IMG/VR virus record: IMGVR_UViG_3300033141_004289
Span: 1-64,000 of that record
Reading direction: 5' to 3' (one strand)
From: a virus
Length of the DNA stretch: 64,000 nucleotides
Every line of letters begins with the position of its first letter. Position 1 is the stretch's first letter. Both the position numbers and the translations under genes were made by a program. The notes under the pieces were generated by a model. The model made no database searches and was not told the DNA's origin. It was given only the letters and a program-made list of their open reading frames with translations. Positions 12,560 to 53,705 of this stretch are shown in pieces.

Positions 12560-12997
12560 ATGGAAGATAATATTAGTGCAGTTAGAAAAATACATTTTTG
12601 TTACGGGCACAGAGTGATGAATCATGAGTCAAAATGTGCTACTGCACATGGACATAATGGTGTGCTGTGGATATATGCAAGGCCTAAAAAGAATTTAGAT
12701 TCATTAGGTAGGGTAGTTGATTTTTCTGTATTAAAGGAAGAGGTCGGTGGTTGGGTAGATGAATATTGGGACCACAATTTCTTAGTAAACAATAAAGATA
12801 TTGAAGTAGTTAAGGGCTTGGCGGCAATGCCTAGAAGAAAAGAACCGTTTCTTTGCGATTTTAATCCTACAGCAGAAAATATGGCTAATTACTTATTAAA
12901 GAAAATTTGTCCTGATCTTATGCAAGATTATGATATCGAAGTACATAAGATTATAATGTATGAAACTGAGAATTGTTATGTAGAGGTGACATTATGA
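12560..12997 (+). CDS. queD: 6-carboxytetrahydropterin synthase
   Basis: FCYGHR, CATAHGHN, G.VVDF, WDH and PTAEN..ET motifs. Confidence 0.93.
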   Translation: MEDNISAVRKIHFCYGHRVMNHESKCATAHGHNGVLWIYARPKKNLDSLGRVVDFSVLKEEVGGWVDEYWDHNFLVNNKDIEVVKGLAAMPRRKEPFLCDFNPTAENMANYLLKKICPDLMQDYDIEVHKIIMYETENCYVEVTL

Positions 12998-13359
12998 AAT
13001 TAGCTGAAAAAATTTTGAGATTATGTGAGGTCAATGAATTAGAGAAGTTATTAAAAAAGCATAAAGGGGCCAAAAACCCTATTATTATGTTTAAATCCAA
13101 ATTTAAAAGTCCTCAAAATAAAGAATCTCTACTAAAGGCACTACCTAAGGATTTTGTAATACTTAATTCTAAGGCCGGAGAAGAGTTTAAAGAGTTTTAT
13201 GTGGACTACCAAGCTGGAAGATCAGGTGAGGCAGCTATACATTTAGGGGTAGAGGGTGAGACAGATGCATTTGTACATTTGGAAAGCGATTTAATGCCAA
13301 TGGATAAACAGTATTTAAGTGAATACGGAAAGGGATTAGATATATTAAAGAAACTCTAG
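12994..13359 (+). CDS. MKLAEKIL-leader protein (putative internal head protein)
   Basis: ATG 12994 overlaps the queD stop (ATGA); shared leader MKLAEKILRLCE. Confidence 0.6.
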   Translation: MKLAEKILRLCEVNELEKLLKKHKGAKNPIIMFKSKFKSPQNKESLLKALPKDFVILNSKAGEEFKEFYVDYQAGRSGEAAIHLGVEGETDAFVHLESDLMPMDKQYLSEYGKGLDILKKL

Positions 13360-13367
13360 GAGAGAGA

Positions 13368-14183
13368 ATGTGGGCAAAAATTAAAAGATGGTTTAGAAAT
13401 CTAAATAGAGATCATCAAGATGATATTGATAGAACAGTTAATGATGACTTAATTCCTGAAAGGCATCCAACCTCATATAAAGTGTGGATTCCAAATGCTG
13501 AGAATATCCATAAAACAGAAAATATTAAAATGAGAACCAGAGGGGAATATGATAAAGGATTTCCCAAAGGTTTAGTGGTTCACTGGACCAGTGGATGGAT
13601 GCTACCAAAAAAAATATTTCCTGATCCATTTCCTAGATTAAATCAAGGTACTTCTAAGTTAAAAAAGATGGCAAGAAAGTACGCATTACGCACGGCTAAA
13701 GGTGGAACTAAGAATGGGTATAATTTTTTAATCATGGATGTATTGGGTAATATCTATCAATCACGTCCACTAACTAAATGGGGATTTCATGCTGGAAAAT
13801 CTTATTGGTCTTCAGTTGGGCATAGTGTTTCAAATGATTTTGCAGGAATAGAAATATTAAATCCGGGTAAATTAGATAGAATAGACGGAAAATTTTATAC
13901 TTGGTTTAAGCAAGAGATTCCAAAGGAATTAGTTAGAGTTGCTCAAGAGGGTGATGGATATGTGCATAATGGTTTTTACTGTATGTATACTAGAGAACAG
14001 GAAATGGCATTAAAAACCCTTTGTCGACAATTATTAGAGATGAGTCCTCATAATATATTTAAAATAGATAATATTGTAGGTCATGATGAGGTAGCTCCTA
14101 ATAGAAAATCTGATCCCGGAGGATCATTAAGCATGAATATGAAAGAATTTAGGAAGTCGATAAGATTACCAATTAATAGTTAG
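13368..14183 (+). CDS. N-acetylmuramoyl-L-alanine amidase (Amidase_2), probable endolysin
   Basis: VVHWT, FHAG, GIE, GHDEVAP.RKSDPG motifs. Confidence 0.85.
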   Translation: MWAKIKRWFRNLNRDHQDDIDRTVNDDLIPERHPTSYKVWIPNAENIHKTENIKMRTRGEYDKGFPKGLVVHWTSGWMLPKKIFPDPFPRLNQGTSKLKKMARKYALRTAKGGTKNGYNFLIMDVLGNIYQSRPLTKWGFHAGKSYWSSVGHSVSNDFAGIEILNPGKLDRIDGKFYTWFKQEIPKELVRVAQEGDGYVHNGFYCMYTREQEMALKTLCRQLLEMSPHNIFKIDNIVGHDEVAPNRKSDPGGSLSMNMKEFRKSIRLPINS

Positions 14184-14192
14184 GAGTTAGTA

Positions 14193-14804
14193 ATGATTAA
14201 AACAGTAATTCAATGGACAGATGTACATGTTGGAGCACCCCATCAATTAGAACATAATATTCAAAAAATTCTAGAGGATTTTGAAACTCATCAACATGAC
14301 CCAGAAGTTATTGTTATCGGCACAGGTGACATAATTGATAATAAAAATGTTAAAAGATCAAAAATGCCATTCTACGCTAGAATGCGAAATGAACTTAAAA
14401 GAATAATGGGTAAGTTCTATAAATTTGGAAACCACGAATGTGAAGTTGACCCAGATGGGTATATATCAATTGAAGAAGATATTATGTGGATGCATTATCA
14501 TGTAAAAAATTGGTGTAATTCATTTATTAATGCTTGTAAGAAAGTAATTAGATGGGAGAATAAAAAAGAAGGTTTAAAGTGGTGGAAATATCTTGGCTAT
14601 AGATTTAAACATAGAGTTGTTTATCGTGGTAAAGAGTGGCATCCATCTGAACAAGAAATAACTGATTTAGTAGCATTTGCTAAAAAGAACAATTGTAAGT
14701 TCGTATTCCTTGGACATATCCATAAGTTCTATGATCAAATTCATGATGGGATAAGGATATGTAATGGTGGTAGAGGCCGAAAGGTTTATCACTTGGAAAG
14801 GTAG
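14193..14804 (+). CDS. Calcineurin-like metallophosphoesterase
   Basis: DVH, GDIID, GNHE, GHIH motifs. Confidence 0.8.
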   Translation: MIKTVIQWTDVHVGAPHQLEHNIQKILEDFETHQHDPEVIVIGTGDIIDNKNVKRSKMPFYARMRNELKRIMGKFYKFGNHECEVDPDGYISIEEDIMWMHYHVKNWCNSFINACKKVIRWENKKEGLKWWKYLGYRFKHRVVYRGKEWHPSEQEITDLVAFAKKNNCKFVFLGHIHKFYDQIHDGIRICNGGRGRKVYHLER

Positions 14805-14808
14805 GGAT

Positions 14809-15573: not shown

Positions 15574-15581
15574 GGGTAATT

Positions 15582-21326: not shown

Positions 21327-21334
21327 GGATAAAT

Positions 21335-21802: not shown

Positions 21803-21825
21803 TTAAAGAAAGAAAGGAATGACCG

Positions 21826-24223: not shown

Positions 24224-24895
24224 ATGAAATTAGCTGAAAAGATATTATCTTGTACTAAGAAAACAGAAGCATTAGAGAAGCCTCGACTTGATATAAAAAC
24301 TACAGGTAGTAAGTTAATATTCAGTGATGCTACAGATCAAAAACTTGCGAAGGCCATATTAATCAAAAAAGGCATGAAAGGGATTGATAAGCAAAAAGGT
24401 AAAGAACTAGAATTTGCTGATGAAGAAACTATGGAGCAAGCATTAGAATTAGTTGAAGCAGATAATGTTAAGGTACAAAAACGAGCAATGGATAATATTC
24501 AGTCTATTATAAACAATTTAGAAGCTGCACTAGGTAGAACCGCTAAATTATTTAGTGATAAGTTTGATATAAAAGCAATTAAGAACGCTACCTCACTTTT
24601 AGCTGATATAGAAGATAGTCTTATGGATATTCATATGGGGTTTGAAGAGGCGAAAATTAGTGAGGCAGAAGATACAGCGAAGTTAGATAAAATGCTAAAA
24701 TCCTTAGATGCCAAACTAATATCTAGTAATAAGAAGCATGTATTATTAGAGTTCCCTAGTGACTCTAAATGGATGATCTATACTAATGAGATCGCAAAAA
24801 ATAAAAATATTCCCGGACGACCTTTACTAGATATATCTTTATCAGACGCAAAATCAAGTGAAGTAGAGCCTATGATTAAAGGGATGGTAAAATGA
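24224..24895 (+). CDS. MKLAEKIL-leader protein
   Basis: Shared leader MKLAEKILSCTKKTE. Confidence 0.6.
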   Translation: MKLAEKILSCTKKTEALEKPRLDIKTTGSKLIFSDATDQKLAKAILIKKGMKGIDKQKGKELEFADEETMEQALELVEADNVKVQKRAMDNIQSIINNLEAALGRTAKLFSDKFDIKAIKNATSLLADIEDSLMDIHMGFEEAKISEAEDTAKLDKMLKSLDAKLISSNKKHVLLEFPSDSKWMIYTNEIAKNKNIPGRPLLDISLSDAKSSEVEPMIKGMVK

Positions 24896-25392
24896 AAATT
24901 ATACAGGAACTGAATAACCTACTTAATGAGAAAGAGTTAGTAGAAAATAAAGATGTAGAAAAACAGCTCCAAATGACCTTTCCTAATTGGGTTCGTTATG
25001 CTGTTGGTAAAAAGCCCAAAGATGATTTAGACGACAAATTTGATCAAAAAAAAGCGGCCAAGGCGTTTGTGAAAACATTTGTACCACATCTCCGTAAAAA
25101 ACTTAATTCACTACAACGTGAATTTGGTGCAGGTGTAAAAACACGATCTTGTAAAGAAGCAGAGATTTTTAGATACGTTATTGGTAAAAAGTCTGAACTA
25201 TCGTTTTTTGCATGTATGCAAGCGTTTGGTAGTAAGTATTATGGGTTTTCTATTTTTGGTTCTATAAAAGGGGTAGAGTACAGCTCTCCTAAACTTGAAA
25301 AAACCAAAATGTCTAAACTTGTAAAGGACCTTGAAAAAGAAGTTGCCTCTTATGAGAAAAAAGTCAGACAACAAAATAAGGCAATAAAATGA
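24892..25392 (+). CDS. MKIxxE-leader protein
   Basis: Leader MKIIQELNNLLNE. Confidence 0.6.
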   Translation: MKIIQELNNLLNEKELVENKDVEKQLQMTFPNWVRYAVGKKPKDDLDDKFDQKKAAKAFVKTFVPHLRKKLNSLQREFGAGVKTRSCKEAEIFRYVIGKKSELSFFACMQAFGSKYYGFSIFGSIKGVEYSSPKLEKTKMSKLVKDLEKEVASYEKKVRQQNKAIK

Positions 25393-25688
25393 AAATTATA
25401 AATGAAATAAATACTTTACTTGGTGAAGGCAAATTCACTGTAAAATGGGATAATATAAAGCCTGTAAAGAAGATTACTTCTGCTAAAGGTTTAAAAGATG
25501 GTGATAAGATTCGAGTAGCTTTACCCGCTGACGATATGGCACCGGGAACTGAGCTAGGATACTATGAATTTAAGGATGGTAAATTTAAATTTGTAGGTGC
25601 AAACTTTTCACCATCTGATTTTGGGGATTATTCTGAAAAAGAATTCTTTATTGAATTTGCTGATAGTGATATTTTTTTATTAAAGTAA
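25389..25688 (+). CDS. MKIxNEIN-leader protein
   Basis: Leader MKIINEINTLLGE. Confidence 0.6.
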   Translation: MKIINEINTLLGEGKFTVKWDNIKPVKKITSAKGLKDGDKIRVALPADDMAPGTELGYYEFKDGKFKFVGANFSPSDFGDYSEKEFFIEFADSDIFLLK

Positions 25689-26962: not shown

Positions 26963-27181
26963 ATGAAGATTGCAAATGAGATAGATAGAATACTCGCTGA
27001 ACAATTCTTACCTAAAAATATTGAAATTGGAAAAAAATACGAAAGTGTTTTTGTTGATGATAAAACATTTAAAGACCTTATTTTAAAAAATATAAATACA
27101 GATACTTCAGAACTATTTTTTGTCGGGAAATCAGGCAAGCATAAGTTCAATTATATTGAACAAGAAATAGAGATTAATTAA
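26963..27181 (+). CDS. MKIxNEI-leader protein
   Basis: Leader MKIANEIDRILAE. Confidence 0.6.
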   Translation: MKIANEIDRILAEQFLPKNIEIGKKYESVFVDDKTFKDLILKNINTDTSELFFVGKSGKHKFNYIEQEIEIN

Positions 27182-30320: not shown

Positions 30321-31070
30321 ATGAATAAAGAAGAGTTATCCATATTAAAAAGTATAGTTAAAAAACCTAAATTGGATAAATTAGGTATGTCAGTAAAAAG
30401 ACAGAGAGTTATTGATAATCTTGAGAAGCAGGGATTTATTGACTATAAGGCTTCCGTAGGTGGAATCACTGCTTATAGGGTTACAAAAAAAGGTCAAGAA
30501 ATGCTTAATAAAAATGAAGGTAGAATGAAATTAGTAAATGAAATAAACGATCTATTAAGTATTGATGAATCAAATAATGTTATGTTTTTTGATAATACAG
30601 TAGGTGGCTTACAAAAATCAGAATTTGACCCGATGGTTAAAGATATATTTAAGGGTAGTGGTTTAAGTCCTGATGTAAATGAAGGCCCATATTATGGTAC
30701 GGATAAGAGTAAAAATGCCCATTATAATGGAGTAGGACTTTTTGCTAGTGATGGGGCCAAAATAGAAGATGATTCTATATATGCAAGTGGTTCTCTTCGT
30801 AGATATTTAGTGCCTGTAAAAAATAGTGATTCCGAAATAGCCAAAGAGTTTTGGGAACTAAGATTAGAATTTGATTATAGCTTAGAAGATGATCTTATGG
30901 ATTATTCTGAAATGTCAAAACCAGTTGAAATGTTAGCAACAGCTAATGGGGATTTTGATGCTAAGAAGTTATCTAAAGACATTAAGAAGCTTATTAAAAA
31001 AGTTAAAGTGGACCAAAAAGTAGCTACAAAAAAAGCTATAGAACAAAAAAAACAGGATAACTCATTATGA
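30321..31070 (+). CDS. Hypothetical protein with internal MKLVNEIN leader (second start at 30525)
   Basis: In-frame GAAGG-TAGA-ATG at 30525 begins MKLVNEINDLLSIDE. Confidence 0.55.
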   Translation: MNKEELSILKSIVKKPKLDKLGMSVKRQRVIDNLEKQGFIDYKASVGGITAYRVTKKGQEMLNKNEGRMKLVNEINDLLSIDESNNVMFFDNTVGGLQKSEFDPMVKDIFKGSGLSPDVNEGPYYGTDKSKNAHYNGVGLFASDGAKIEDDSIYASGSLRRYLVPVKNSDSEIAKEFWELRLEFDYSLEDDLMDYSEMSKPVEMLATANGDFDAKKLSKDIKKLIKKVKVDQKVATKKAIEQKKQDNSL

Positions 31071-31312
31071 AAATAGTAAATGAGATAAATAATTTGTTAG
31101 AAGGCCTTTTTAAAGTTGGTGATAAAGTTGAGCTTTCAAGAGACCAACAATTCTCTAATGTGGATATGAAAACGCATAAGTCAAAAATGTTTATTATAAA
31201 AAAAGGTACTAAAGGTATTGTGAAAAGTGTGGCCAGTGATGGGATACCCTCTGTGTTATGGGATAATCAAACTGAACCAAAACTAACTCCACCAGTGGCC
31301 TTAAAGAAATAA
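31067..31312 (+). CDS. MKIVNEIN-leader protein, SH3/KOW-like body
   Basis: Leader MKIVNEINNLLE then FKVGDKV..G.KG.V. Confidence 0.6.
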   Translation: MKIVNEINNLLEGLFKVGDKVELSRDQQFSNVDMKTHKSKMFIIKKGTKGIVKSVASDGIPSVLWDNQTEPKLTPPVALKK

Positions 31313-38326: not shown

Positions 38327-40033
38327 ATGTCAAAAATACAAATTAATCCGAATGTGAATTTAAACTATACTCCAAAGAGTAATGTTATTTCGGTAACTAA
38401 CAAACTACCAAATAACGAAGATTATTCTAAAGCATTAAAAGAATTTTTCCAAGCTGCTGAAATAAATAAACTAAGTGGGTTAGAAAATCATTATGCTTTA
38501 ACTGCCTATGCTGCAATTTATACGAAGGTAGCAAGTCAATTACAGGCCGTAATTAGATCAGTAGATAATATGAGATCATTTTATCTGGTTGATGTTATTT
38601 TAAGCCAGATAGCAGAAGATTCACTAGCACCTAGAGTTGGTAGTGAACAGTTGCTAAGATATTCCCACCCTAATGAAAGTATTCAAAAAGAATTAGATGA
38701 CCTACATAAAAACATTGGGTTAGATCAATTAATTGAAAACATAGCACCTGATATTTTAGCTTATGGGGAATACACATTAGCCACTAGAATAGGTGAACCA
38801 CCCCAAGTTAAAGAAGATGAATTAGGTAAAAAGAAAAAGAAATTTAAAGCTAAAAAAAGTGGAAAGGGTATTATTGATGTAACCGATATTGTAGATCAGG
38901 GAACTGTTATATCTTTAACGCAAGATGGGAAAACGGAGGGATACCTAGTTGTTAATGAACAATCAGGAAAAGTTGAAGTTAAGGAAACTGCAGACTACAT
39001 TAAGTTTTCTTTAGGTGGACAAAGGGTAAGAGTAGATATTAAAAAATCTATACCTGATGGAGCATGGAGAAACAATTCTTTAAAAGAAGTGTTAGATAAT
39101 ATTCCAAGATTTATTAGAGTTGGAAAATCTGTCTTATATCCAGTTTTATCTAAATTAAAAGAATTAGAATTATTAGAAAAACTAATACCAGCAACCAAAA
39201 TTAATAAGTTGTCGCAGGGTAACTTAGTTGGAATGAACCTACCTGAAAATTTTGATTTAGAAACTGCTCAAGTAGCTGTTAAGAAAATTGAAGGAATGAT
39301 AAATAAACGAGTTAATGTTGACCCTTCAACTCAAGAGATAACTGTAGAATCTATTTTATCAACTGCTGGAAAAACAAAAATTATTCCTTTATTTGGTGAC
39401 AAAGGCTCATTATCTAATATGGATTATAAGTCTGATGAACCAGATAGTTTGATGGGTGATACTAAAGAAATTAGAGAACTAATTCTGGATTCAGTTGGTG
39501 TTCCATCTGAATTAGTATTTAAATCCGATGGAGAATCTAAATCAGAAATTCTAAAGAGATATGCTAAATATATTAGAAAATTAAAAAGGCTTCAAAAAGC
39601 CATTGCTACAGGCTGTAGACAAATAGCCTTTATCCATTTAGCTAATAGAAATATTAAATATAAAGAAGAAGAAGTTGAAGTCATCTTTAATAACACATTA
39701 GTTGAAATTGATAATTTAGATACATTAGAACATGCTGATGTAACTCTTGGATTATTGGCCAATGTAAGGGATTTCTTTAATGATATGGCAGATGAAGATA
39801 GTCCATATGCAGATAACATTAACTTAAATAAAGTAACTGAATATTTAGAATTTAATTTGAAAACTATTGGATTATCTGATGCTATGATCTTACCTAAAGA
39901 AGGTGGTGGTGATGTTGATGCTAAAGCAGATGAAATTGGTGATGTTTCACCCAATGTTAAAGCAGAACCTAAAGTTGAGGAACCAGTTGATAACGAAGAT
40001 GACGGGGAAGAATTAGTAAAAGAAGAGGAATAA
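38327..40033 (+). CDS. Portal protein (T4 gp20-like)
   Basis: 568 aa, first gene of the head module, GKSVL, GVPSEL, KRLQ patterns, acidic tail. Confidence 0.75.
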   Translation: MSKIQINPNVNLNYTPKSNVISVTNKLPNNEDYSKALKEFFQAAEINKLSGLENHYALTAYAAIYTKVASQLQAVIRSVDNMRSFYLVDVILSQIAEDSLAPRVGSEQLLRYSHPNESIQKELDDLHKNIGLDQLIENIAPDILAYGEYTLATRIGEPPQVKEDELGKKKKKFKAKKSGKGIIDVTDIVDQGTVISLTQDGKTEGYLVVNEQSGKVEVKETADYIKFSLGGQRVRVDIKKSIPDGAWRNNSLKEVLDNIPRFIRVGKSVLYPVLSKLKELELLEKLIPATKINKLSQGNLVGMNLPENFDLETAQVAVKKIEGMINKRVNVDPSTQEITVESILSTAGKTKIIPLFGDKGSLSNMDYKSDEPDSLMGDTKEIRELILDSVGVPSELVFKSDGESKSEILKRYAKYIRKLKRLQKAIATGCRQIAFIHLANRNIKYKEEEVEVIFNNTLVEIDNLDTLEHADVTLGLLANVRDFFNDMADEDSPYADNINLNKVTEYLEFNLKTIGLSDAMILPKEGGGDVDAKADEIGDVSPNVKAEPKVEEPVDNEDDGEELVKEEE

Positions 40034-40036: not shown

Positions 40037-40546
40037 ATGAAAATTACAAATGAAATCATGGAGATGATGGGTACAAAAAAGATTATTAAATCTGTGGCTA
40101 TAAATATAAAAGATGGCGGAGATGGGTATAATAAGGCCGTTGATAAATTAGACAAGTCAGGTGGCTCGATTACAGATAAACAAGATAAAGAAGGACTAAT
40201 ATCTAATCTTATTGCTAAAAAATTAGATATCTCTAAGGATACTAATTTCTCGTTTGATTTCGCTAAATCAAAGGGGGATAAAATTGTTGTCTCAGGAGTA
40301 ATTATTGATGAGGCCCAACATTATAATACTAAAATACGCCAATTAGAAGGTGCAGGTAGTAGAAAAATAAGACTTGGTGTTAAGCAATGCGTCGAAATGT
40401 CTGAACGGATGTTGAATCCTAATAATAATTATCCAAATCCAGCAGATGAATTAGGTAGAATTGCTTTGTTAGAAGGTATTCAAATGATGAATATGACTAT
40501 GAAAAAGTTAAAATCTGTTAAAGATAAAAAGGGTAAAAAACAATGA
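40037..40546 (+). CDS. MKITNEI-leader protein
   Basis: Leader MKITNEIME. Confidence 0.55.
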   Translation: MKITNEIMEMMGTKKIIKSVAINIKDGGDGYNKAVDKLDKSGGSITDKQDKEGLISNLIAKKLDISKDTNFSFDFAKSKGDKIVVSGVIIDEAQHYNTKIRQLEGAGSRKIRLGVKQCVEMSERMLNPNNNYPNPADELGRIALLEGIQMMNMTMKKLKSVKDKKGKKQ

Positions 40547-41214
40547 AATTAATACAACAATTATTTGAAGAAATGCTTCCCCAATCATCTGATCTAATTA
40601 GATTAGCTTTAAATCAAAGAATTTTTGATTTAGGTATCGAGGGTGTTTTTGTAGAGGAAGTAGATATTGAATTTGATGGGGATGTTATAGTTGAGTTTGT
40701 GGATAATGAACAAAACGAAATGAGTGTACTATTTCAATATGACCCAGTTGATGGTGCTGAAGCAATAGTTATAGATGATGAAGGTGGGGATTTTGAGGAT
40801 GAAGAGAATGGTGAATTTGAAATTGATATGATTGATATTGACCCATTAGTTCCAACTATTATCAACTTAGGTAATGGAACTCACTCAATTGATTTAGTTA
40901 ATAATAAATGGATGAATAGATCATTTTTTGATGCTTTATTTTCATTAGCAGATCATATGGAAAGTATGCCAAGTGATATTGATGAAAGAGCTGCATTTGT
41001 TATTAAAGGTGGTAAAAAGGTAAAGGTAGCACTAGTTAGAAGAAAAAGAAAAAAGAGACTAACTTCTAAACAAAAAGCTGGTTTTAAAAAGGGTGCTAGA
41101 AAAAGGAAAGCAAAGAAGGGCCAAATAAATAGAAAAAGGGCCAAATCTTTAAAGGTTCGTAAAAGACTTAAACTAAAGAAAAATACTAATAAGAAATTAA
41201 AGGTAATGCGATAA
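40543..41214 (+). CDS. Prohead core protein (gp68-like)
   Basis: Acidic N-half, very basic C-terminus VIKGGKKVK..RAKSLKVRKRL; lies between portal and protease. Confidence 0.6.
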   Translation: MKLIQQLFEEMLPQSSDLIRLALNQRIFDLGIEGVFVEEVDIEFDGDVIVEFVDNEQNEMSVLFQYDPVDGAEAIVIDDEGGDFEDEENGEFEIDMIDIDPLVPTIINLGNGTHSIDLVNNKWMNRSFFDALFSLADHMESMPSDIDERAAFVIKGGKKVKVALVRRKRKKRLTSKQKAGFKKGARKRKAKKGQINRKRAKSLKVRKRLKLKKNTNKKLKVMR

Positions 41215-41732
41215 TGAAAGTCATCAATGAAATAAATAATTTTTTATGGGCAAGCATTTTTGAATCTATTGATCTGAATGAAAACATTAACATGCGGTTT
41301 GTTTCTGAAAAAGAATGTGACGAATATATTGAAAGAACAGAAATTTGGAGAATTGAAGGGGATGAATCTGACCCTGAGGGGACAGAGGTGCTTTCAGCTT
41401 ATTCTAAAGTTGACGGGTCATATATAGGTCAAATTAAAGAAGCTGACATAATGGTGAAAAAATGGGGATTATCCCAAATTCAAAAAGCCGAAAATGGTCA
41501 CAGCGTTGCATCAATCGGATTTAATGAAAAGAAACAAGAATGGTGTGGGTGGAGTCATAGAGCAATGTGTGGTTTTGGAATTGGTGATAAAGTATTTGAT
41601 GAAAGTTTTGGCGGCACAATGGATATAGGCCAATTGGAAAAAATGCCCTTTAGAAAAAGGGGTAGTATAGTTATCGCTAAATTAGAACAAGCAAAAAAAG
41701 CAGCAAGTAATTTTGCTAAATATGTGAGCTAA
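41214..41732 (+). CDS. MKVINEIN-leader protein
   Basis: Leader followed by SIGF..W.GWSHRA..GFGIGD conserved phage domain. Confidence 0.6.
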   Translation: MKVINEINNFLWASIFESIDLNENINMRFVSEKECDEYIERTEIWRIEGDESDPEGTEVLSAYSKVDGSYIGQIKEADIMVKKWGLSQIQKAENGHSVASIGFNEKKQEWCGWSHRAMCGFGIGDKVFDESFGGTMDIGQLEKMPFRKRGSIVIAKLEQAKKAASNFAKYVS

Positions 41733-42223: not shown

Positions 42224-42943
42224 ATGAAATTTAATACAACTTTAGATGCACAAACATTTTTAACTGAGGTTAGAGAGTTCTCTAAGATTAAAGATGCTGA
42301 TGAGAAGTATGAGCCAACTAATGAGGAAGTTCAATCATTTTTAAAGGCCCGCACACCGTTAGTTAAAAAATTAAAAAATAATAGAAAATCATCTGCTCAA
42401 AAAGCAAATTGGCGACAAAATAGATATAAGATGATGAAAGGTATTAAGGCCTTCCATAAGTCTGTTAAAGGGAAGAGATTTCATAGAAAATTAGGTACTT
42501 TTTTAGCCACTAGATTATTTCGTGCTAAAACAAGTGAAAGTGGCTTTTCAATGTTATTATCAAAGCAGGGTTATTTGAAAGGACTTAATTCAGCAAAACA
42601 GCATTTATTGGTTGAACTCGAGTATTTTCATCAATTACAAGAACAGGTAGAATTAGAAGAGTTTATTACTGATTATGCCTATCCTTATTTTAGATCGATA
42701 GAAGAAAAAGTTATAATAGACGAAGATTTGACAGATGATGAATTAGTGTTCTTGTTTGATTTAGTTGAGGCCAATGCTTTGATAACTTCATTTTCTGATA
42801 AAACAGGGTTAACATTTGCACAAATCGAGAAAATGTGGAATGCTATAAGGAATGATTTAAATAAAGAAGGGATTACAGATGATGATGAAAAATTTTATCC
42901 CTTTTTGGTTACTCGTTTAAAAAAACAGATAGGAATTAAATAG
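42224..42943 (+). CDS. Putative prohead core protein
   Basis: Basic W..NR.K..GI..FHKS..GKRFHR segment; immediately before the protease. Confidence 0.45.
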   Translation: MKFNTTLDAQTFLTEVREFSKIKDADEKYEPTNEEVQSFLKARTPLVKKLKNNRKSSAQKANWRQNRYKMMKGIKAFHKSVKGKRFHRKLGTFLATRLFRAKTSESGFSMLLSKQGYLKGLNSAKQHLLVELEYFHQLQEQVELEEFITDYAYPYFRSIEEKVIIDEDLTDDELVFLFDLVEANALITSFSDKTGLTFAQIEKMWNAIRNDLNKEGITDDDEKFYPFLVTRLKKQIGIK

Positions 42944-44319
42944 TGAAACTTGAAAAAATTTCATGCGTAATTGACCCCGAAGTTAAATTTTCTCTAGTTG
43001 AGGAATCTAATGAAGTTGATGGGGAACATATTTTAGCAAAGATCAAAGGTCAGTTCTTTGTTCCTAACGGTAAATCCAGAAATGGTAGATTTTATCCTTC
43101 TGCTTTATGGGAAAGAGTAATTAATGACCCAACAGTTAAGAATAGATTAAATAAAAGAGTAATGTTTGGTACAGTGGGTCATGACGCCGAATTAAATGAT
43201 AAAGCTGTTCGAGAAGGTCTAATTTCCCATTTTATGACAAATATTGGAATTGATGATAATGGTAGAGGTATGGGTGAAGCCTTAATTTTAAATACTCCGA
43301 CTGGGCGTATTTTAAATACAGTTCTAAGAGCTGGTTCCCAATTATTTGTTTCCTCAAGGGCCAATGGCACCTTTAAAGGAAAGCATGACGGTTTGCCAGT
43401 TGTAGATGAGGACACTTATGATATTGATGGTTGGGATTTTGTAATTGACCCCGGTTTTTTAGAGGCCAACCCATCAGTTTCTGAAAGTCTAAAGAAAATA
43501 GGAGAAAAAAATATGAACATTAATAACAAGGAAGTCAGCATGAACGAAAAACTGATTGAGCACATTTCTAATGAGAACCATGAACTTAAAACTAAAGTTG
43601 GAAATCTAACTGATGAAATTAAAGCATTAGAAGAAGATACAACTACTATTAAAGAAGAGAACACACATCTTAAATCTGAAATGGATAAGTGGGAAGCTGA
43701 TAAAAAGGTTATCGAATCTTATACAAATATCGGTACAGTTGAAGAACTTACTGAAAAACTTGCTAAAGCAGATGAAGATGGAAAGGTTCTAACGGCCTAC
43801 AATGAGCTTTCTGATTCCCCAGAAATTGCTAAAGAAACTCTTGAAAGTGCTAGAGACTTTATCAAAACTGTAACAGAAGAGTTTGGAACAATTGCTCAAA
43901 TTAAAAAGGCCCTTGAATCAGCTATTTCTTTTAGAGAGTCTATTGAAGAAATGGGAACAACTGATCAAATTAAAGAAGCCCTTACTGCTTATTTAACAAT
44001 TCTTGAAGCCGAAGAAGCTAAAAAAGAAGATATTAAAGTTAAAGCTCTTGCAGAAGAACTTGGAATTGAAGAAGGAAAAATGAAAGACCTTCTACTTAAA
44101 TATTCTGAAGAAGATATTAAGGCCCTTCTTGGAAATAAGAAAGAAGAGAAGCCAGTTGAAGAAAACAAAGAAGATACTACTACTGATGAAGATGCTTATA
44201 AAAAGAAGAACTTCACAGAAGAAAAAAAGGAAGAAGATACGAATACTGACGTTTCTGAAAGTAATATTTTAGGAAAATCAAGAGCTGATCGTATCGCTGA
44301 AAGATATAACAGAGTTTAA
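42943..44319 (+). CDS. Prohead protease (gp21-like) fused to scaffold
   Basis: SRNGRFY, GH, SH, TPTG, VSSRA.G, DFV.DPGF..A.P then a long acidic coiled coil. Confidence 0.9.
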   Translation: MKLEKISCVIDPEVKFSLVEESNEVDGEHILAKIKGQFFVPNGKSRNGRFYPSALWERVINDPTVKNRLNKRVMFGTVGHDAELNDKAVREGLISHFMTNIGIDDNGRGMGEALILNTPTGRILNTVLRAGSQLFVSSRANGTFKGKHDGLPVVDEDTYDIDGWDFVIDPGFLEANPSVSESLKKIGEKNMNINNKEVSMNEKLIEHISNENHELKTKVGNLTDEIKALEEDTTTIKEENTHLKSEMDKWEADKKVIESYTNIGTVEELTEKLAKADEDGKVLTAYNELSDSPEIAKETLESARDFIKTVTEEFGTIAQIKKALESAISFRESIEEMGTTDQIKEALTAYLTILEAEEAKKEDIKVKALAEELGIEEGKMKDLLLKYSEEDIKALLGNKKEEKPVEENKEDTTTDEDAYKKKNFTEEKKEEDTNTDVSESNILGKSRADRIAERYNRV

Positions 44320-44398: not shown

Positions 44399-45814
44399 AT
44401 GGATACTAACAAAATCGAAGAAAAGGCCGTTGAAAGAATGGCTGAGGGATACTTCGCTAAATACAAATCCCAAATGCAAACACTCGAAAAATCTCTAGTT
44501 TCTAAAGCTATGGATTTGACTGAGCATCACCTAGTTCAACTTGGAAAGCAACTTGACCAATGGGAAGTTTATCGTTCCATGTGTGAAGCTAATGGTTCTT
44601 TGAACACTCTTGGTGAGCTACCTAAAGTTGCTCTTGATGTTATTACAGCTACTATGAGTAATAGTATTCTTCCTGTAATTGCTTCTACGCAAACTATTGA
44701 GTCTCAAAAATCAATTATCTGGTTCAAGAATGTAAAAGCTCTTGATTCTAAAGGTAATATTACTGCTGGTGATAAATTGATTGACCCACGAGTTGGAAGT
44801 AAGACACCTTCTGGATATGCTTCTTCTGAAGTTATCGGTGAAGAAGCTGTTAACCCAACTATTGCAACTCAGGTTGCTTACGCTTTTAGTGTAAATGGTA
44901 GTGAGTCAATTCGCAGTCAATTTATTAAAGTTTATCTAGAGTCTGATCCTTCCATCTATGCGAAAGATTTTGAAGGAAAAGGTATTCTTCTTGGTAACGG
45001 AATGAGTGGTACAGTTAATTATACAACTGGTGCTATCACTATTGATCTTGCAGCTGATCCAGGAGGAGCTGATAAGATTCTTGTTGATTATCAACAAAAC
45101 CTTGAAGAGATGAGCGATGTTCGAAGAATTAGCTCTGAACTTGAATCAACTGACATCGAAGCAAAACCATATGCACTTAAAGGTGTTATGGGAATGTTCC
45201 AGATGTTCGCTCTTAAAAAAGCATTTGGTGATTCTGCTCTTGATGACCTAACTATGGACCTTACTCGTGAAATCAATGCTGAAATCGGTGGCGATTTTAT
45301 TCGTAAGTATTCTAGTGAAGCCGTTGGTACAACTAGTTTTACTGATTATAACCCTCTTGTTCAAACTGGTTATTCTGAGAAGCAATACAGAGAGTCTTAT
45401 GCTTTCCGTATGGCAGATGCAGAAACAGTTATGATGGGTAATGTTGGTCGTGGTGCTATTAAAGTTATGATCGTTGGTCGTGAGCATGCTGCCCTCGTAA
45501 GAGGACTTGATGGATTCAACCTTCTTTCTGATGGTGGAAGTCTTGGTGCACACGTTTTTGGAACTTATAAGGGTATTACTTATATTCGTGTTCCAGAAGA
45601 AGCACTTCTTAGTGCTAAATTAGGTATTGGACTTTACACTGGTGCTTCTCCACTTGAGAGTGCTGGGGTTTATGCTCCTTTTATGCCTCTAACTGTTCAA
45701 GCTGCACCTTTAGGGCCTAACCCACTAACTGACCAAAAAGTTGCTGCCACTATGGCTGGAACTAAGGTTGTTGTTCCCGGTTATGCTACTAAATTTAATG
45801 TAGTTGCTCCTTAA
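44399..45814 (+). CDS. Major capsid protein (gp23-like)
   Basis: Follows protease/scaffold; EINAEI, YAPFMPL motif; strongly biased codons; terminator after. Confidence 0.9.
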   Translation: MDTNKIEEKAVERMAEGYFAKYKSQMQTLEKSLVSKAMDLTEHHLVQLGKQLDQWEVYRSMCEANGSLNTLGELPKVALDVITATMSNSILPVIASTQTIESQKSIIWFKNVKALDSKGNITAGDKLIDPRVGSKTPSGYASSEVIGEEAVNPTIATQVAYAFSVNGSESIRSQFIKVYLESDPSIYAKDFEGKGILLGNGMSGTVNYTTGAITIDLAADPGGADKILVDYQQNLEEMSDVRRISSELESTDIEAKPYALKGVMGMFQMFALKKAFGDSALDDLTMDLTREINAEIGGDFIRKYSSEAVGTTSFTDYNPLVQTGYSEKQYRESYAFRMADAETVMMGNVGRGAIKVMIVGREHAALVRGLDGFNLLSDGGSLGAHVFGTYKGITYIRVPEEALLSAKLGIGLYTGASPLESAGVYAPFMPLTVQAAPLGPNPLTDQKVAATMAGTKVVVPGYATKFNVVAP

Positions 45815-46904: not shown

Positions 46905-47175
46905 TATGAGTATAGCAAAAAAGATTTTAGATAAGTTACCTAAGAAAGAAGAGACGAAAGTGGATGAAAAAGTTGCTCCTTCTTTTTTTGATGCCGCAAA
47001 TGCTTTGGCTTCTTTAATTAAAAGATGGAAAAGCGGTGATAAGAATTTCGCTGGTGTTCAAAAACTATTTGTAGAAATTCTTGATAGTTTAGACGAAGTT
47101 GATGAACAACAAGCATTAGCTAAAATGGATGCATTAGCTAAATTTATTAGAAGCAAGGATATTGAAGGATAAATA

Positions 47176-47751
47176 ATGCCTGTCTTTTTAAAAGATATTA
47201 AAAGGGAATTAGAATCCGATATTGGAAAGGTAGGACAAGCTGCTGATGGTAGCTATAAGTTTGAACCACCCAATATTGTAGGTAGGAAAATATCAAAATA
47301 TACTAAATTAAAAGTTACTAAGGTATCTTCTACACCAACTTTCGGTACAAATTCTATATCATATAATGGATTAGCTGCTTCTGAATCAGATAAGGGTATT
47401 AAATATAAAGTAACTATTAGATTTCACGATATGCAGTTTAAGGATATTGCTTCTAAACAATTCTCTACAGAAGCAAAAATGGGTAAAGTTACTAAGTATC
47501 ACAGGATACCTACAGTTCAAAGAAATCCAGTAATGCTAAAATGTAGCTGTCAGGATTTTAGGCATAGATTTGAAACTCAATTATCAAATGCTAGTGGATT
47601 AGTTGGTGGTCCTAGAAAATATACTAGAAAAACCCCCCCATGGCCTATTGGTTATCCATTTGCCAACTCAACAAATAAGTTAGGTATTTGTAAGCATGTA
47701 AACTCTCTATTATTTATTTTAAAAGATAAGGGTTTAATTAAGGAGCGATAA
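47176..47751 (+). CDS. SWIM-like zinc-finger protein
   Basis: CSCQDF...GICKH. Confidence 0.6.
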   Translation: MPVFLKDIKRELESDIGKVGQAADGSYKFEPPNIVGRKISKYTKLKVTKVSSTPTFGTNSISYNGLAASESDKGIKYKVTIRFHDMQFKDIASKQFSTEAKMGKVTKYHRIPTVQRNPVMLKCSCQDFRHRFETQLSNASGLVGGPRKYTRKTPPWPIGYPFANSTNKLGICKHVNSLLFILKDKGLIKER

Positions 47752-48035
47752 TGAAATTAGCAGAAAAGGTATTACTATTTAGTGAGGCTTTCGATACTGA
47801 GCAAGCAATGAAGAACGTACCGATTCAGACAGGCAAGGTTAGATTCTTTAATGCCAGTGATTTAAAAGGTTCGATAACAGGTGATGATGGCGGTTCTTAT
47901 GACATCTTCCTTAATCAACATAATAAAAAAGACGTTAAAACGGCCAAGAAAATAAAAGATGGTATGAAAATTAAGTTTAAAGACCTCGATGTAGAACCAC
48001 CAATGGCCTATATTGGTGATTTTAGTTTTAAGTAA
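47751..48035 (+). CDS. MKLAEK-leader protein with cold-shock-like OB fold
   Basis: Leader MKLAEKVLLFSE; TGKVRFFNASDLKGSITGDDG..DIF resembles CspA. Confidence 0.6.
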   Translation: MKLAEKVLLFSEAFDTEQAMKNVPIQTGKVRFFNASDLKGSITGDDGGSYDIFLNQHNKKDVKTAKKIKDGMKIKFKDLDVEPPMAYIGDFSFK

Positions 48036-48452: not shown

Positions 48453-48722
48453 ATGAATATTATTATAGAAATAAAAAAATTATTAGAAGATGCCCAAGAA
48501 GATTTTTTAAGTAAGCATAGTAAGACATATGATCTTGATAAATATGCTGAGTATATGGATACTAATTTTCTAAGCGGTAGGGACAATTCAAGAAGGCGAT
48601 ATGATAAGGCAATTGATTCATATATAAATGCTAATTTTGGAAATATAAAAGATAAGAAGGTATTAAAGGAAATCAAAGATAAGTTAGTTAATCAATATGA
48701 ATATGAAGATGGGGTTAATTAG
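48453..48722 (+). CDS. Leader-bearing protein
   Basis: Leader MNIIIEIKKLLE. Confidence 0.5.
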   Translation: MNIIIEIKKLLEDAQEDFLSKHSKTYDLDKYAEYMDTNFLSGRDNSRRRYDKAIDSYINANFGNIKDKKVLKEIKDKLVNQYEYEDGVN

Positions 48723-48903: not shown

Positions 48904-49173
48904 ATGAAATTAGCTGAAAAATGTTTAGAACTAGGTAAAGAAGAAATCGTTGTAGAGGCCAAAAAAGTTAATGGAGAGAAGATGATTGCTGATATGGAAA
49001 AAGCAATTGAATCAAATGATGAGAAAAGTCTTTTAAAATTTATGGCAATGGATAAAAAGAACTTCTTTAGTAAGAATAATTTAGACATGCTTGCCGATGA
49101 AGGACAAATTACAAAGGAACAAGCAAGTCAGTTAGGTAAATTATCAATTCAAGTTGCTCAAGCATTGAGATAG
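48904..49173 (+). CDS. MKLAEK-leader protein
   Basis: SD GGAG then MKLAEKCLELGKEE. Confidence 0.6.
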   Translation: MKLAEKCLELGKEEIVVEAKKVNGEKMIADMEKAIESNDEKSLLKFMAMDKKNFFSKNNLDMLADEGQITKEQASQLGKLSIQVAQALR

Positions 49174-51831: not shown

Positions 51832-52365
51832 ATGGCAAATTTCTCGATTGACCAATTAAGAGCTTTACCCGACTACGCACAGGTTACAAAATGGGATGTC
51901 ACCTTTGTAACTCTCCCTGCTGTCGGTGCATTGGGTTTTCCAGTAGCAGAAGATATTAATCTTCGTTGTGAATCCGTTGAACTTCCTAAAGGTGCAAACC
52001 AGAAATATGAAGTAATGACTAGAGGTCATAAAACACTTCATAGTGGAATCATGGATTATGGAAACACTATTACATTAACTTTTACAGAAACAGTTGATAA
52101 TTTCTTGTTTAATTTTGTAAAAGCATGGAGAGAACTGGTTTGGAGTAGCCGTCAAGGACAGGCTTTTTCTAAAGCAGATATTGAGGCAACTCTATTGATT
52201 ACCTTGCTTGATAACCAAGATAATCCAAGGGCCAAATATACTGTTTATGGTTGTTTTTATGAAAGTGATGATTTTGGAACATTAGATGGTTCAACCTCTG
52301 ATGCTATGAAACCATCATTGACATTAAGTTTTGACCATTTTGTAGATGCACCTCTAAGCGTTTAA
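51832..52365 (+). CDS. Tail tube protein (gp19-like)
   Basis: Follows sheath; C.SVELP, ITLTF.ET, W...V, LSFD. Confidence 0.85.
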   Translation: MANFSIDQLRALPDYAQVTKWDVTFVTLPAVGALGFPVAEDINLRCESVELPKGANQKYEVMTRGHKTLHSGIMDYGNTITLTFTETVDNFLFNFVKAWRELVWSSRQGQAFSKADIEATLLITLLDNQDNPRAKYTVYGCFYESDDFGTLDGSTSDAMKPSLTLSFDHFVDAPLSV

Positions 52366-52375
52366 TTTGATTTAT

Positions 52376-52408
52376 AGGGGGTAATAACTATATGTTACTA
52401 CCCCTTTT
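52376..52408 (+). terminator. Rho-independent terminator after tube gene
   Basis: AGGGGGTAA..TTACTACCCCT plus TTT. Confidence 0.7.
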
Positions 52409-52452
52409 CATCTTCCAAATCAGTTCATATAATATTCCAGAGAGGTTTAACT

Positions 52453-53136
52453 ATGGCACTTGTTCCTAGTTTTATTCCGGGTGGCGATAAAATCAATAAT
52501 GCTGTAAATAGTTTTCTTGATGGTGGAGCTGTAGGAATAGAAACAATTCGTTCTATTAATTATGGAACAACTTATTTATGGACTGTCGATTTTATTGATA
52601 CTAATGGAATTAAACCACCAGCTCCATTTGATGCATTTTTTCCAGCATCCGAAGTTACCTTTAATTTGGGTATCATTAATTCACATACTGTAGAGATGGG
52701 GCAATCAAGCATTACATTTCCAAGAAATACTACTTTTAAGACAGTAGATGTAACCTTTTTTGATGACGAAAATAGAAGTTTACAAAGATGGATGAGTGAT
52801 TGGATGAATGTGGATTTACTAAATTATGGCGAATTTATGTCTGGGATAAATGATAGTCATCAAGTAGTTGCAGCCGATTCATTTGGAAATAGTAGTAGAA
52901 GTGTTCAACCAATGAGACATATTAGAATTGCACTATTAGATAAATATAAATCAGAAACTGTAGTATATAATTATAATGTTGTACCTGATGGTAATATTGA
53001 TTTTGGTGGGACTCAAGCAAGTGAAGCATCTCAGTTTAGTATGAAGTTTAATATCGTAGAGGAATTAGGAAGACCGAAAGCCGGTGATAGTAGTTCCTTT
53101 AATTTTGTAAGAAATATATTAGGTAGGTTTATATGA
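52453..53136 (+). CDS. Tube-fold baseplate/tube initiator (gp54-like)
   Basis: VTFFDDE...W..W tube-like pattern; position. Confidence 0.55.
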   Translation: MALVPSFIPGGDKINNAVNSFLDGGAVGIETIRSINYGTTYLWTVDFIDTNGIKPPAPFDAFFPASEVTFNLGIINSHTVEMGQSSITFPRNTTFKTVDVTFFDDENRSLQRWMSDWMNVDLLNYGEFMSGINDSHQVVAADSFGNSSRSVQPMRHIRIALLDKYKSETVVYNYNVVPDGNIDFGGTQASEASQFSMKFNIVEELGRPKAGDSSSFNFVRNILGRFI

Positions 53137-53479
53137 AATTAGTAAATGAAATTAATTCAATGTTGGAAGAGGTTGATGCTAAAACAGATATGAAAGTTGA
53201 TGATTTTGTTAGTAAATTTTTAATGAAAACCTATAAATTAGATTCCTATCCAGATGGTAGTGGAGTTGAAGGTAAATCAATTAGAAAGACTTTCCCTGTT
53301 AGGGATATAAAAGATGTTGATGCTAAAAAAATAGAAGATGCTATAAATGGTAAATTTAAAGATATTTTAAAATCTGTGTCTGTTAAAAAGAAAAGTCCTA
53401 GGAATCAAGTCGCCCAGTATTGGGTGGATATAAAATTTAAATAAAGGTAAGTTTATATGAAATTAGTAAATGAAATTAA
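53121..53479 (+). repeat. 35-bp direct repeat (1 mismatch) at the starts of two adjacent leader genes
   Basis: AGGTA[G/A]GTTTATATGAAATTAGTAAATGAAATTAA at 53121 and 53445. Confidence 0.9.
53133..53444 (+). CDS. MKLVNEIN-leader protein
   Basis: Leader MKLVNEINSMLEE. Confidence 0.6.
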   Translation: MKLVNEINSMLEEVDAKTDMKVDDFVSKFLMKTYKLDSYPDGSGVEGKSIRKTFPVRDIKDVDAKKIEDAINGKFKDILKSVSVKKKSPRNQVAQYWVDIKFK

Positions 53480-53705
53480 AAATTTAATTGAAGCAGTAGA
53501 TGGAAAAGAACTAAAAGCAGAATTATTAAAGAATAAAAACATTCAAGCAGTAGATACAGAAAAAGGAAAACTTATTGCTATTGTTTCACCAGAAATGAAG
53601 CATAAATTTTTGGCAGATATAAAGAAGAGTAAACTAATGAATCAATCTGCAAATTGGGTAGATTCAGCAGGTAAAACAATAAAGTTTTACTTCGATGTAA
53701 AGTAA
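53457..53705 (+). CDS. MKLVNEI-leader protein
   Basis: Leader MKLVNEIKNLIE. Confidence 0.6.
   Translation: MKLVNEIKNLIEAVDGKELKAELLKNKNIQAVDTEKGKLIAIVSPEMKHKFLADIKKSKLMNQSANWVDSAGKTIKFYFDVK

Follow-up and report, generated by a model that had tools for sequence, protein, structure and literature searches.

A common N-terminal leader that probably loads assorted small proteins into the head of an uncultured contractile-tailed phage

One of the closest known systems to the one described here is the capsid targeting sequence (CTS) that the T4 and T-even phages place on the internal proteins Ip1-3 (and Alt) and remove with gp21. The T4 proteins Ip1-3 have only an N-terminal leader in common, which directs packaging, and each of them inhibits one GmrSD nuclease (PMC12373910). 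The targeting sequence of T4 is about 10 residues long and receives a single cut. Phage P1 delivers its Dar anti-restriction proteins with the DNA; these large proteins are incorporated during head morphogenesis by an ordered protein-protein hierarchy and are not known to depend on a common short leader. Among the giant phages, the SPN3US paralogues gp53 and gp54 have an identical 15-residue N-terminus that reminded its authors of the T4 leaders (PMC5694885). Proteases of the S77 family in T4, phiKZ, 201phi2-1 and SPN3US all cleave behind the Glu of an x-X-E motif, and the propeptide of T4 gp23 measures 65 residues (PMC5694885).

In this study, we analyzed an uncultured, contractile-tailed, 105-kb phage (whole contig 104,850 bp), with a window formed by the first 64,000 nucleotides of IMG/VR record IMGVR_UViG_3300033141_004289. 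A common amphipathic N-terminal leader of 12-13 residues is clear in 14 of its genes and marginal in 3 more, about one-tenth of the phage genes (14-17 of about 170; Table 1, with genes named below by their first position). The leader probably loads assorted small proteins into the virus head, by analogy with T4. It follows the pattern M-K-hydrophobic-hydrophobic-x-(E/K)-hydrophobic-x-x-hydrophobic-hydrophobic-x-E, after which a flexible linker leads to the body, and it occurs as two sub-types, class A (MKLAEK.L) and class B (MK(I/L/V)xNEI). All 17 starts listed in the preliminary description are present on the + strand at the coordinates it gave and read as it claimed. When we compared residues 2-13 of the 166 called proteins of the whole contig, 15 pairs had at least 7/12 identities versus 0.07 expected from 500 column-preserving shuffles (shuffle maximum 2), whereas internal 12-mers of the same 166 proteins gave no such pair. 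When a 13-residue position matrix was scored at each of the 4,093 start codons of the six frames, its 17 top scores were exactly the 17 starts, the next best start codon reaching 13.4, and no member falls beyond 12994-53705. The leaders are strongly amphipathic, their helical hydrophobic moment averaging 0.58 versus 0.29 for other N-termini (p 1e-9).

Table 1. Leader genes and head genes discussed in the text
Feature	Coordinates	Strand	Description
Leader gene, class A MKLAEKIL	12994..13359	+	121 aa; L-C-E at residue 12
Leader gene, class A	24224..24895	+	223 aa; no known family
Leader gene, class B	24892..25392	+	166 aa; L-N-E at residue 13; basic body
Leader gene, class B	25389..25688	+	99 aa; L-G-E at residue 13
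Leader gene, class B	26963..27181	+	72 aa; L-A-E at residue 13; strong ribosome-binding site
Leader, class B, at internal Met	30525..31070	+	own ribosome-binding site
Leader gene, class B	31067..31312	+	81 aa; L-L-E at residue 12
Leader gene, class A	31959..32387	+	142 aa; I-G-E at residue 12
Portal protein	38327..40033	+	kept in all relatives; start of head module
Leader gene, class B	40037..40546	+	169 aa, basic; kept downstream of portal gene in relatives
Core-like protein, marginal leader	40543..41214	+	F-E-E at residue 10
Leader (class B) and Tad6-family body	41214..41732	+	PF25188
Protein of no known family	42224..42943	+	239 aa; candidate core or scaffold partner
Prohead protease-scaffold fusion	42943..44319	+	S77 domain about residues 20-170, T4 gp21 fold
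Major capsid protein	44399..45814	+	conserved (M/I)-x-E then (A/S)(N/D)G junction, residues 63/64
Marginal leader gene, MSIAKKIL	46906..47172	+	88 aa; no counterpart in relatives
Leader gene, class A	47751..48035	+	94 aa; F-S-E at residue 12; small beta-rich body
Marginal leader gene	48453..48722	+	89 aa; L-L-E at residue 12; no counterpart in relatives
Leader gene, class A	48904..49173	+	89 aa; good ribosome-binding site
Leader gene, class B	53133..53444	+	103 aa; M-L-E/L-E-E at residues 12-13; inserted 3' of tail tube genes
Leader gene, class B	53457..53705	+	82 aa; L-I-E at residue 12; insertion site same as 53133

Leave-one-out matrix scoring keeps 14 starts as clear members (at least 7.7) and sets three apart. 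Gene 46906, previously called a weaker match, is indeed marginal (0.4); 48453 had been placed in the MK[LIV].NEI class and does carry the leader, but only marginally (3.4); and the leader of 40543, described as similar, has one of the 17 best matrix scores but falls to -6.0 when left out. In 11 of the 17 genes no other possible start separates the leader Met from the in-frame stop that precedes it, and 48904 has a weaker possible start 7 codons upstream. At 30525, which had been taken for an ORF start, the leader is present but lies 68 codons inside ORF 30321-31070; the 68 residues before it are in frame and winged-helix-like in appearance. Past residue 16 the bodies diverge completely, as had been proposed (all-against-all BLASTP best E 0.07). 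The SH3-like bodies once reported among them find no support in Pfam, and the cold-shock-like body gives a match below threshold (E 0.0045). A homologue search with the 31959 product returned only its own sequence.

The DNA-modification genes at 13-32 kb have eight tagged genes among them, including 12994 directly 3' of a QueD-like gene, and three others occupy the interval from the portal gene to the protease gene. Within the head-tail block, relatives lack a counterpart for six of the nine tagged genes but for only 3 of the 22 without a tag (p 0.007), which indicates that the tagged genes are accessory. No late promoter could be defined.

Most leaders close with the motif behind which proteases of the 42943 product's family cleave. 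A hydrophobic-x-Glu at residues 10-15 is found in 12 of the 17 leaders, five being without it, but in only 16 of 150 proteins that have no leader (Fisher p 1.7e-7), in keeping with the earlier remark that the leader usually ends at E; this evidence overlaps the family resemblance itself, and the two are not independent. The description of the 42943 protease as gp21-like is borne out by Pfam S77 (31.1 bits versus a cut-off of 27), by PHROG 207 'head maturation protease' (E 1.5e-23) and by the match of its AF2 model to T4 gp21 (5JBL; E 8.8e-10, target TM 0.75), and His80 and Ser137 of its S77 domain are invariant. The C-terminal half is acidic and helical and bears most of the protein's 27 hydrophobic-x-Glu sites, whose density is 5.9 per 100 residues in the protease-scaffold versus a genome mean of 2.47. 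By gene call, six of the seven leader-bearing relatives compared keep the 42224 gene immediately before that of the protease, and the seventh, L009, does so by tblastn only. Hydrophobic-x-Glu also marks the conserved junction of the major capsid protein at residue 63, compared with the 65 residues of the T4 gp23 propeptide. This capsid protein has a second junction (M-A-E then GY at residue 16); it gave no PHROG match, and its identity to the capsid protein of any phage in the searched collection does not exceed 36.6%.

The 41214 product matches PF25188 with an E of 2.7e-31 over residues 38-172, nearly the whole profile, and its body retains the conserved core motifs of Tad6; on these sequence grounds, we consider it a clear homologue of this inhibitor of Thoeris (ThsB). 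The AF2 model of the product places the leader in a detached helix (residues 2-18) that is followed by a disordered linker. Because of this detached helix, and because the leader is seen only in the closest Tad6 homologues while more distant family members begin at the body, we regard the leader as an add-on. The anti-defence cargo proposed earlier fits the Tad6 homologue, the only cargo with a functional assignment, but is indicated for only 1 of the 17 proteins. The texts consulted on Tad6 do not describe its packaging. Thoeris senses late capsid proteins (review PMC13728456), so that delivery of a ThsB inhibitor in advance is not obviously needed.

Relatives whose proteases are 35-52% identical to that of 42943 bear common leaders of their own (MKLC.. 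five times in contig G001, MSKA.. five times in contig L010, and others), and hydrophobic-x-Glu also closes most divergent leaders of these relatives. Homologous bodies bear the leader of the local genome, be they Tad6-like or related to 40037, 40543 or 47751. The 40037 homologue in G001 has G001's own leader, each homologue of 40543 has that of its own genome, and homologues of the 47751 body elsewhere bear four other leaders. The leader thus tracks the genome and not the gene. The head regions of two cultured distant relatives, E. coli phage IME392 and Rhizobium phage RHph_TM30, contain no such leader family.

The reading that we favor, and think reasonably likely, is that the leader serves as a T4-type capsid-targeting propeptide. 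The leader helix would dock new proteins onto the assembling prohead core, where the coiled-coil half of the protease-scaffold fusion, the 42224 product and the core proteins 40037 and 40543 are candidate partners, and the closing capsid shell would then enclose the docked proteins. The S77 (gp21-fold) protease would cut after the leader-terminal Glu, the same type of site at which it would cut the capsid protein and the scaffold, and the trimmed proteins of about 60-210 residues would be retained in the head with the DNA. More tentatively, the trimmed proteins may exit with the DNA at infection, and would in that case be active ahead of all phage gene expression. We expect the Tad6 homologue to inhibit ThsB, the sensor of type I Thoeris, and cargo encoded among the 7-deazaguanine genes may, if T4 Ip1-3 are a guide, block nucleases aimed at modified DNA. 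Every step from docking to ejection is our inference, and packaging, a cut behind the leader Glu and injection are drawn solely from the analogy with T4. All computationally testable parts of the capsid-targeting reading came out favorable, and the interpretation given in the preliminary description is partly supported. Points against this reading are the five leaders without hydrophobic-x-Glu at residues 10-15, the eight tagged genes among DNA-modification genes, the late capsid proteins as the trigger of Thoeris, the single cargo with a functional assignment and the lack of such a family in the head regions of IME392 and RHph_TM30.

Alternatively, the leader could be a docking or recognition tag for a partner other than the capsid, such as a common host or phage protein, an enzyme that modifies the tag or a protease that times degradation, and its resemblance to T4 would be superficial. 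A short amphipathic helix is a generic binding element, and about half of the tagged genes adjoin 7-deazaguanine (preQ0) synthesis genes, including one for a radical-SAM enzyme, rather than structural genes. We nevertheless regard such a tag as unlikely: the sole radical-SAM gene is QueE, part of a full QueC/QueD/QueE/FolE set, and G001 has a five-member leader family yet no radical-SAM match or Que genes in 76.7 kb. What the leader-bearing relatives share instead is the block of portal, 42224-like, protease-scaffold and capsid genes, and a non-capsid partner does not predict the hydrophobic-x-Glu of the relatives' leaders and of the capsid junction.

It is also rather improbable that the leader targets the prohead and is cut but that the proteins serve only head assembly or DNA condensation. 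They would then belong to the core or scaffold, or resemble histones, and would be broken down, expelled or kept instead of being injected as effectors. Such a role would suit 40037 and 40543, which are kept across relatives among core genes, and the 40543 product has an acidic middle followed by a very basic, Lys/Arg-rich tail that is DNA-binding-like. Most tagged genes, however, are lineage-specific inserts without counterparts in relatives, which would be surprising for proteins of head assembly; their bodies show no relation to one another and vary widely in charge, and one is a homologue of Tad6, which is known to act within the host cell.

Very little probability remains for shared starts that reflect a nucleic-acid feature with the peptide incidental, either a gene-capturing cassette (a duplicated expression or recombination unit) or the site of a translational regulator. 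T4-type genomes do contain mobile regulatory cassettes, and the tagged genes do sit at insertion hotspots between conserved genes. However, the DNA upstream of the leader starts is unconserved except for the ribosome-binding site, and synonymous codons vary at conserved leader residues, so it is the peptide, not the DNA or RNA, that is under selection; both sub-types and the relatives' leaders also preserve the amphipathic arrangement and the closing Glu despite their divergence in sequence. Chance resemblance from AT-rich codon usage at gene starts, with Met-Lys and Asn/Ile/Lys-rich N-termini in a contig of 32% G+C where many genes begin Met-Lys, is refuted by the shuffles, which preserve that bias, and by the matrix scan, in which non-start positions in six frames gave no score in the family range.

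The resemblance to T4 extends to several features. In both systems a short N-terminal leader is the sole feature common to otherwise unrelated small proteins, and it ends in Glu with a hydrophobic residue two positions earlier (I-A-E at residue 10 in T4). Both phages encode a gp21-fold protease, place some tagged genes between portal and protease, where the core genes of T4 lie, have a tagged protein with a Lys/Arg-rich tail (here 40543), count an anti-defence protein among the cargo (here the Tad6 homologue), vary in their tagged genes between relatives and have modified DNA (predicted here). The leaders themselves, in contrast, show no sequence homology (best 4/10 identities, 40543), and the lineage is remote by its capsid protein. 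Protease and scaffold form one polypeptide here but two, gp21 and gp22, in T4, and instead of three internal-protein genes at two loci there are 14-17 tagged genes of two sub-types over 40 kb, extending into the DNA-modification region. The identified cargo would target a signaling defense, Thoeris, rather than a type IV nuclease, and the present system, unlike that of T4, is known from sequence and models alone. The internal head proteins of phiKZ, 201phi2-1 and SPN3US have N-terminal propeptides that S77-family proteases remove by cutting after the x-X-E Glu (PMC5694885), but these propeptides are mostly >100 residues long and belong to head proteins that are paralogous or conserved, in genomes of >200 kb, with no single short tag on many unrelated accessory proteins. 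The proposed likeness to P1 Dar lies in anti-defence proteins that would be packaged in the head and delivered with the DNA, through a common short leader on small proteins here in place of an ordered hierarchy of large ones. With Tad6 (a ThsB-binding inhibitor of type I Thoeris, PF25188) the 41214 product shares its body, to which it and its closest homologues, unlike distant Tad6 members, add a leader and linker of about 25-35 residues. The principle is known already from the T-even internal proteins; what is new is the lineage, how many genes are tagged, how they are dispersed and what type of cargo they encode.

In the window, 14 clear and 3 marginal members of a protein family begin with one short shared sequence and continue into unrelated bodies, as is characteristic of a T4-type leader system. 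The preliminary description had claimed 17 leader starts, all of which (17/17) read as it stated, followed by completely divergent bodies, which our comparison bears out. Its expectation that the leader would be enriched over shuffled N-termini also held: among the 166 called proteins, 15 pairs have at least 7 of 12 identical residues at positions 2-13, versus 0.07 in shuffles. These shuffles preserve composition at every position, and the test is therefore biased toward chance. No pair of internal 12-mers of the called proteins reached seven identities, and when a 13-residue position matrix was run over the 4,093 start codons in six frames, the claimed starts took the first 17 places. Leave-one-out scoring upholds 14 of the 17 members, the marginal ones being 48453, 46906, and 40543 (genes are named by their start coordinates); 40543 was kept because its homologues in related contigs bear those genomes' leaders. 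The leaders fall into two sub-types, MKLAEK.L (class A) and MK(I/L/V)xNEI (class B), both of which form an amphipathic helix, with a hydrophobic moment of 0.58 versus 0.29 for other N-termini. The leader of 30525 lies inside a longer open frame, in which 68 N-terminal residues that look like a winged-helix domain are followed in frame, without an intervening stop, by a class B leader with a ribosome-binding site of its own. This frame would yield either two products or a fusion with a possibly excisable internal leader. Its layout recurs in another phage, in the protein P0025, a homologue of the 47751 product, where a single frame encodes a leader, a basic tail of the 40543 family (56% identity), a second leader, and a 47751-type body.

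The source virus is a contractile-tailed phage. Its single contig, of which the window is the first 64 kb, is 104,850 bp long and 88% complete as estimated by CheckV, has a G+C content of 32%, and is coding almost wholly on the + strand. Phage records searched at the near-DNA level gave no match and no close cultured phage. None of the phage records searched exceeds 36.6% identity to the capsid protein; the top matches are in Rhizobium phages of the RHph_TM30 group (with RHph_TM30 itself classified in Kleczkowskaviridae), and scattered other myoviruses match it at about 30% identity. The same protein matched no PHROG family, despite its ~36% identity to annotated Rhizobium phage capsid proteins. 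The preQ0 pathway is complete, which implies DNA modified with 7-deazaguanine, and eight tagged genes are interleaved with its four genes (window 12560-31949). Elsewhere in the window, two genes had no Pfam match, and a protein of 475 residues combines a homing-endonuclease-associated repeat with a metallophosphatase domain. The ~900 bases of overlapping short frames that follow it matched no family and may represent a mobile element or a gene in decay. A lone tRNA gene lies within a 480-base gap that has no called genes of at least 50 residues.

Features of the window, with start coordinates or ranges
Feature	Position	Remark
tRNA-Asp (GTC)	9918-9996	
QueD	12560	preQ0 (7-deazaguanine) set
T4-type large terminase	16904	
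Two genes with no Pfam match	22509-24157	
QueC	25759	preQ0 (7-deazaguanine) set
475-residue protein	27220-29558	
QueE	29592	preQ0 (7-deazaguanine) set
Open frame containing the leader of 30525	30321-31070	
FolE	31323	preQ0 (7-deazaguanine) set
Portal	38327	
Prohead protease (fused to scaffold)	42943-44319	
Capsid protein	44399-45814	
47751 body	47751-48035	
Tail sheath	50228	
Tail tube	51832	

The distribution of leaders among relatives indicates a relationship between leader and genome. Protease-based scans identified uncultured relatives at 35-52% identity, each of which has its own within-genome leader family: the 76.7-kb contig G001 carries an MKLC.. leader five times, L010 an MSKA.. leader five times, and L008, L012, and L009 have leader pairs or triplets ending in L-L-E. 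A Tad6-like body bears the window's leader in the window and an MNLC.. leader in G001. Homologues of 40037 and 40543 in relatives likewise bear the local leader, and the 47751 body has homologues elsewhere with four other leaders. The leader follows the genome, not the gene. This concerted pattern, in which the terminal Glu is mostly kept, is consistent with leaders that co-evolve, within each phage, with a partner common to them. The leader-bearing relatives have in common the portal, the protease-scaffold, and the capsid protein, and most also have the family of 42224, the conserved gene directly upstream of the protease. Within the head-tail block, 6 of 9 tagged genes have no counterpart in relatives, compared with 3 of 22 untagged genes (p 0.007); most tagged genes of this block are therefore accessory inserts at hotspots. 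At the site of 48453 and 48904, G001 holds two differently tagged genes. In G001, moreover, the two proteins flanking the Tad6-like gene (9278-9727 and 10871-11287, in the coordinates of the same contig listed as L004) share another, longer N-terminus, MK(N/S)I(S/N)EAMK.FK.NEK, so that genomes of this clade seem commonly to have more than one leader class. No leader family was seen in the 28-41 kb inspected of the cultured distant relatives IME392 and RHph_TM30.

The head module encodes a gp21-family (S77) protease, again as in a T4-type leader system. The product of 42943 has 458 residues, and its assignment as gp21-like in the preliminary description is confirmed by matches of the N-terminal domain to Pfam S77 (PF03420, 31.1 bits against a cut-off of 27) and PHROG 207 and by the fold, since its model superposes on T4 gp21 (5JBL; Foldseek E 8.8e-10, target TM 0.75). 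The candidate catalytic residues His80 and Ser137 are invariant in 10 relatives, with a spacing similar to that in T4. The C-terminal half is acidic and has long helices and is thus scaffold-like; the fusion contains 27 hydrophobic-x-Glu sites, or 5.9 per 100 residues, versus a genome mean of 2.47. Its N-terminus, MKLEKIS (42943-42966), falls short of the class A leader MKLAEKIL by a single residue and is not common to the proteases of relatives. At the level of the motif, the leaders appear to end at a gp21-type cleavage site, a Glu that has a hydrophobic or small residue two positions ahead of it: hydrophobic-x-Glu occurs at residues 10-15 in 12 of 17 leaders versus 16 of 150 other proteins, and it also terminates most leaders of relatives. 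S77-family proteases of T4 and giant phages all cleave after Glu in an x-X-E motif (PMC5694885). Aligned capsid proteins of 15 relatives share a conserved junction, (M/I)-x-E followed by (A/S)(N/D)G, at residue 63, close to the length of the T4 gp23 propeptide of 65 residues (PMC5694885). The interval from the portal gene to the protease gene contains three tagged genes, 40037, 40543, and 41214. The 40543 product consists of the leader, an acidic middle, and a Lys/Arg-rich tail, a layout like that of an internal DNA-associated protein.

The preliminary description proposed that the tagged proteins serve as anti-defence cargo, and one body, that of 41214, supports this in that it can be assigned to Tad6 by a full-length profile match (PF25188; E 2.7e-31, 109 bits against a cut-off of 27, profile positions 9-145 of 145) and by the core motifs WSHR and GFGIGD, both of which it keeps. 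Tad6 is an inhibitor of type I Thoeris that acts by binding to ThsB (review PMC13728456; PMC13402655). The leader is limited to the closest Tad6 homologues, and more distant family members begin at the body. In the 41214 model (pLDDT 87.8), residues 2-18 form a helix that stands apart from the compact body, which begins at residue 25, and a disordered linker connects the two; a Foldseek search of the PDB with this model and a PDB sequence search found nothing and no solved Tad6 structure. This is the only identifiable body. The remaining cargo proteins have 72-223 residues, vary in charge, and are without relatives or families: PHROGs gave nothing save a weak match for 24892 and one match for 40543, and Pfam, apart from Tad6, gave below-threshold matches only. 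Among ten tagged proteins of relatives, Pfam returned only below-threshold methyltransferase-like matches, for one protein. Atlas look-ups of the 24224 and 42224 products gave no usable lead, a word-based search with the 31959 product found only itself, and tblastn of the 24892 product against phage records found nothing. Several very large proteins from other sources, 860-1,970 residues in length, contain the small, beta-rich 47751 body as a multi-copy repeat, with 4-8 matched stretches; the proteins listed with this recurrence are P0020, P0022, P0023, and P0026-P0028.

Our tentative proposal, which we consider possible rather than probable, is that in an uncultured myovirus clade remote from T4, a genome-specific, fast-evolving "address code" stocks the capsid with a large arsenal, rapid in its turnover, that is delivered along with the DNA. 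In this phage the arsenal would comprise at least 14 proteins (~9% of genes), among them an inhibitor of a signalling immune system (Tad6, directed at Thoeris) and perhaps proteins that counter nucleases acting on 7-deazaguanine DNA. We infer packaging, cleavage, and ejection of the tagged proteins, and likewise their timing; no late promoter could be defined, and the recurring AACTATACT motif was not enriched (28 observed versus 31 expected). It is unlikely that the leader is instead a tag for a non-capsid partner. One version of this idea, in which a radical-SAM maturase recognizes the leader in a RiPP-like manner, is not supported, as no dedicated radical-SAM/SPASM enzyme was found with the tagged genes. 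The sole radical-SAM match in the genome is QueE, inside the complete preQ0 gene set, and G001 has a leader family and no radical-SAM match in 76.7 kb (a contig estimated to be 64% complete). Slightly less likely still is a role of the tagged proteins in assembly only, which suits the two conserved core-like proteins but is ill-suited to the variable accessory set and to the Tad6 homologue. A nucleic-acid cassette is very improbable, as it is the peptide that is conserved: the tagged genes differ in their upstream DNA, and synonymous codons vary at conserved residues. The column-preserving shuffles and the matrix ranking leave almost no room for chance resemblance.

If the address-code proposal is true, the sequence by itself could reveal injected proteomes and new anti-defence proteins, via the leader shared within a genome. 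If the tag loads the head, this genome lists ~15 candidate pre-packaged effectors; as most of them have no relatives, they would be a promising place to look for novel functions in anti-defence or host takeover. Ready-made delivery would then also extend beyond inhibitors of restriction nucleases to inhibitors of signalling defences such as Thoeris. That leaders go with genomes offers a simple computational way to predict the virion cargo of uncultured phages, and a short tag with its matching protease could load foreign proteins into non-T4 phage capsids.

The internal proteins of T4 are the closest parallel. Their only shared feature is an N-terminal leader of ~10 residues, MKTYQEFIAE, which directs them to the scaffolding core and is removed by one gp21 cut; foreign proteins fused to it get packaged. 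T-even phages have at least ten such proteins, discovered via the leader, and each of Ip1-3 inhibits a single GmrSD nuclease with activity against modified DNA (PMC12373910). The leader described here is not homologous in sequence to that of T4 (at most 4 of 10 identities, for 40543, by eye), so this system is not a member by sequence; the two leaders have in common only the helical pattern and the terminal Glu. Judged from sequence, it is an analogue or a very remote relative of the T4 system, and it probably works like it. The lineage is different, the protease is fused to the scaffold, 14-17 of ~170 genes are tagged with two leader sub-types, the tagged genes are dispersed over 40 kb that include the DNA-modification region, and the type of cargo differs. 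The interleaving of tagged genes with 7-deazaguanine genes parallels T4, whose injected Ip proteins shield modified DNA from modification-dependent nucleases.
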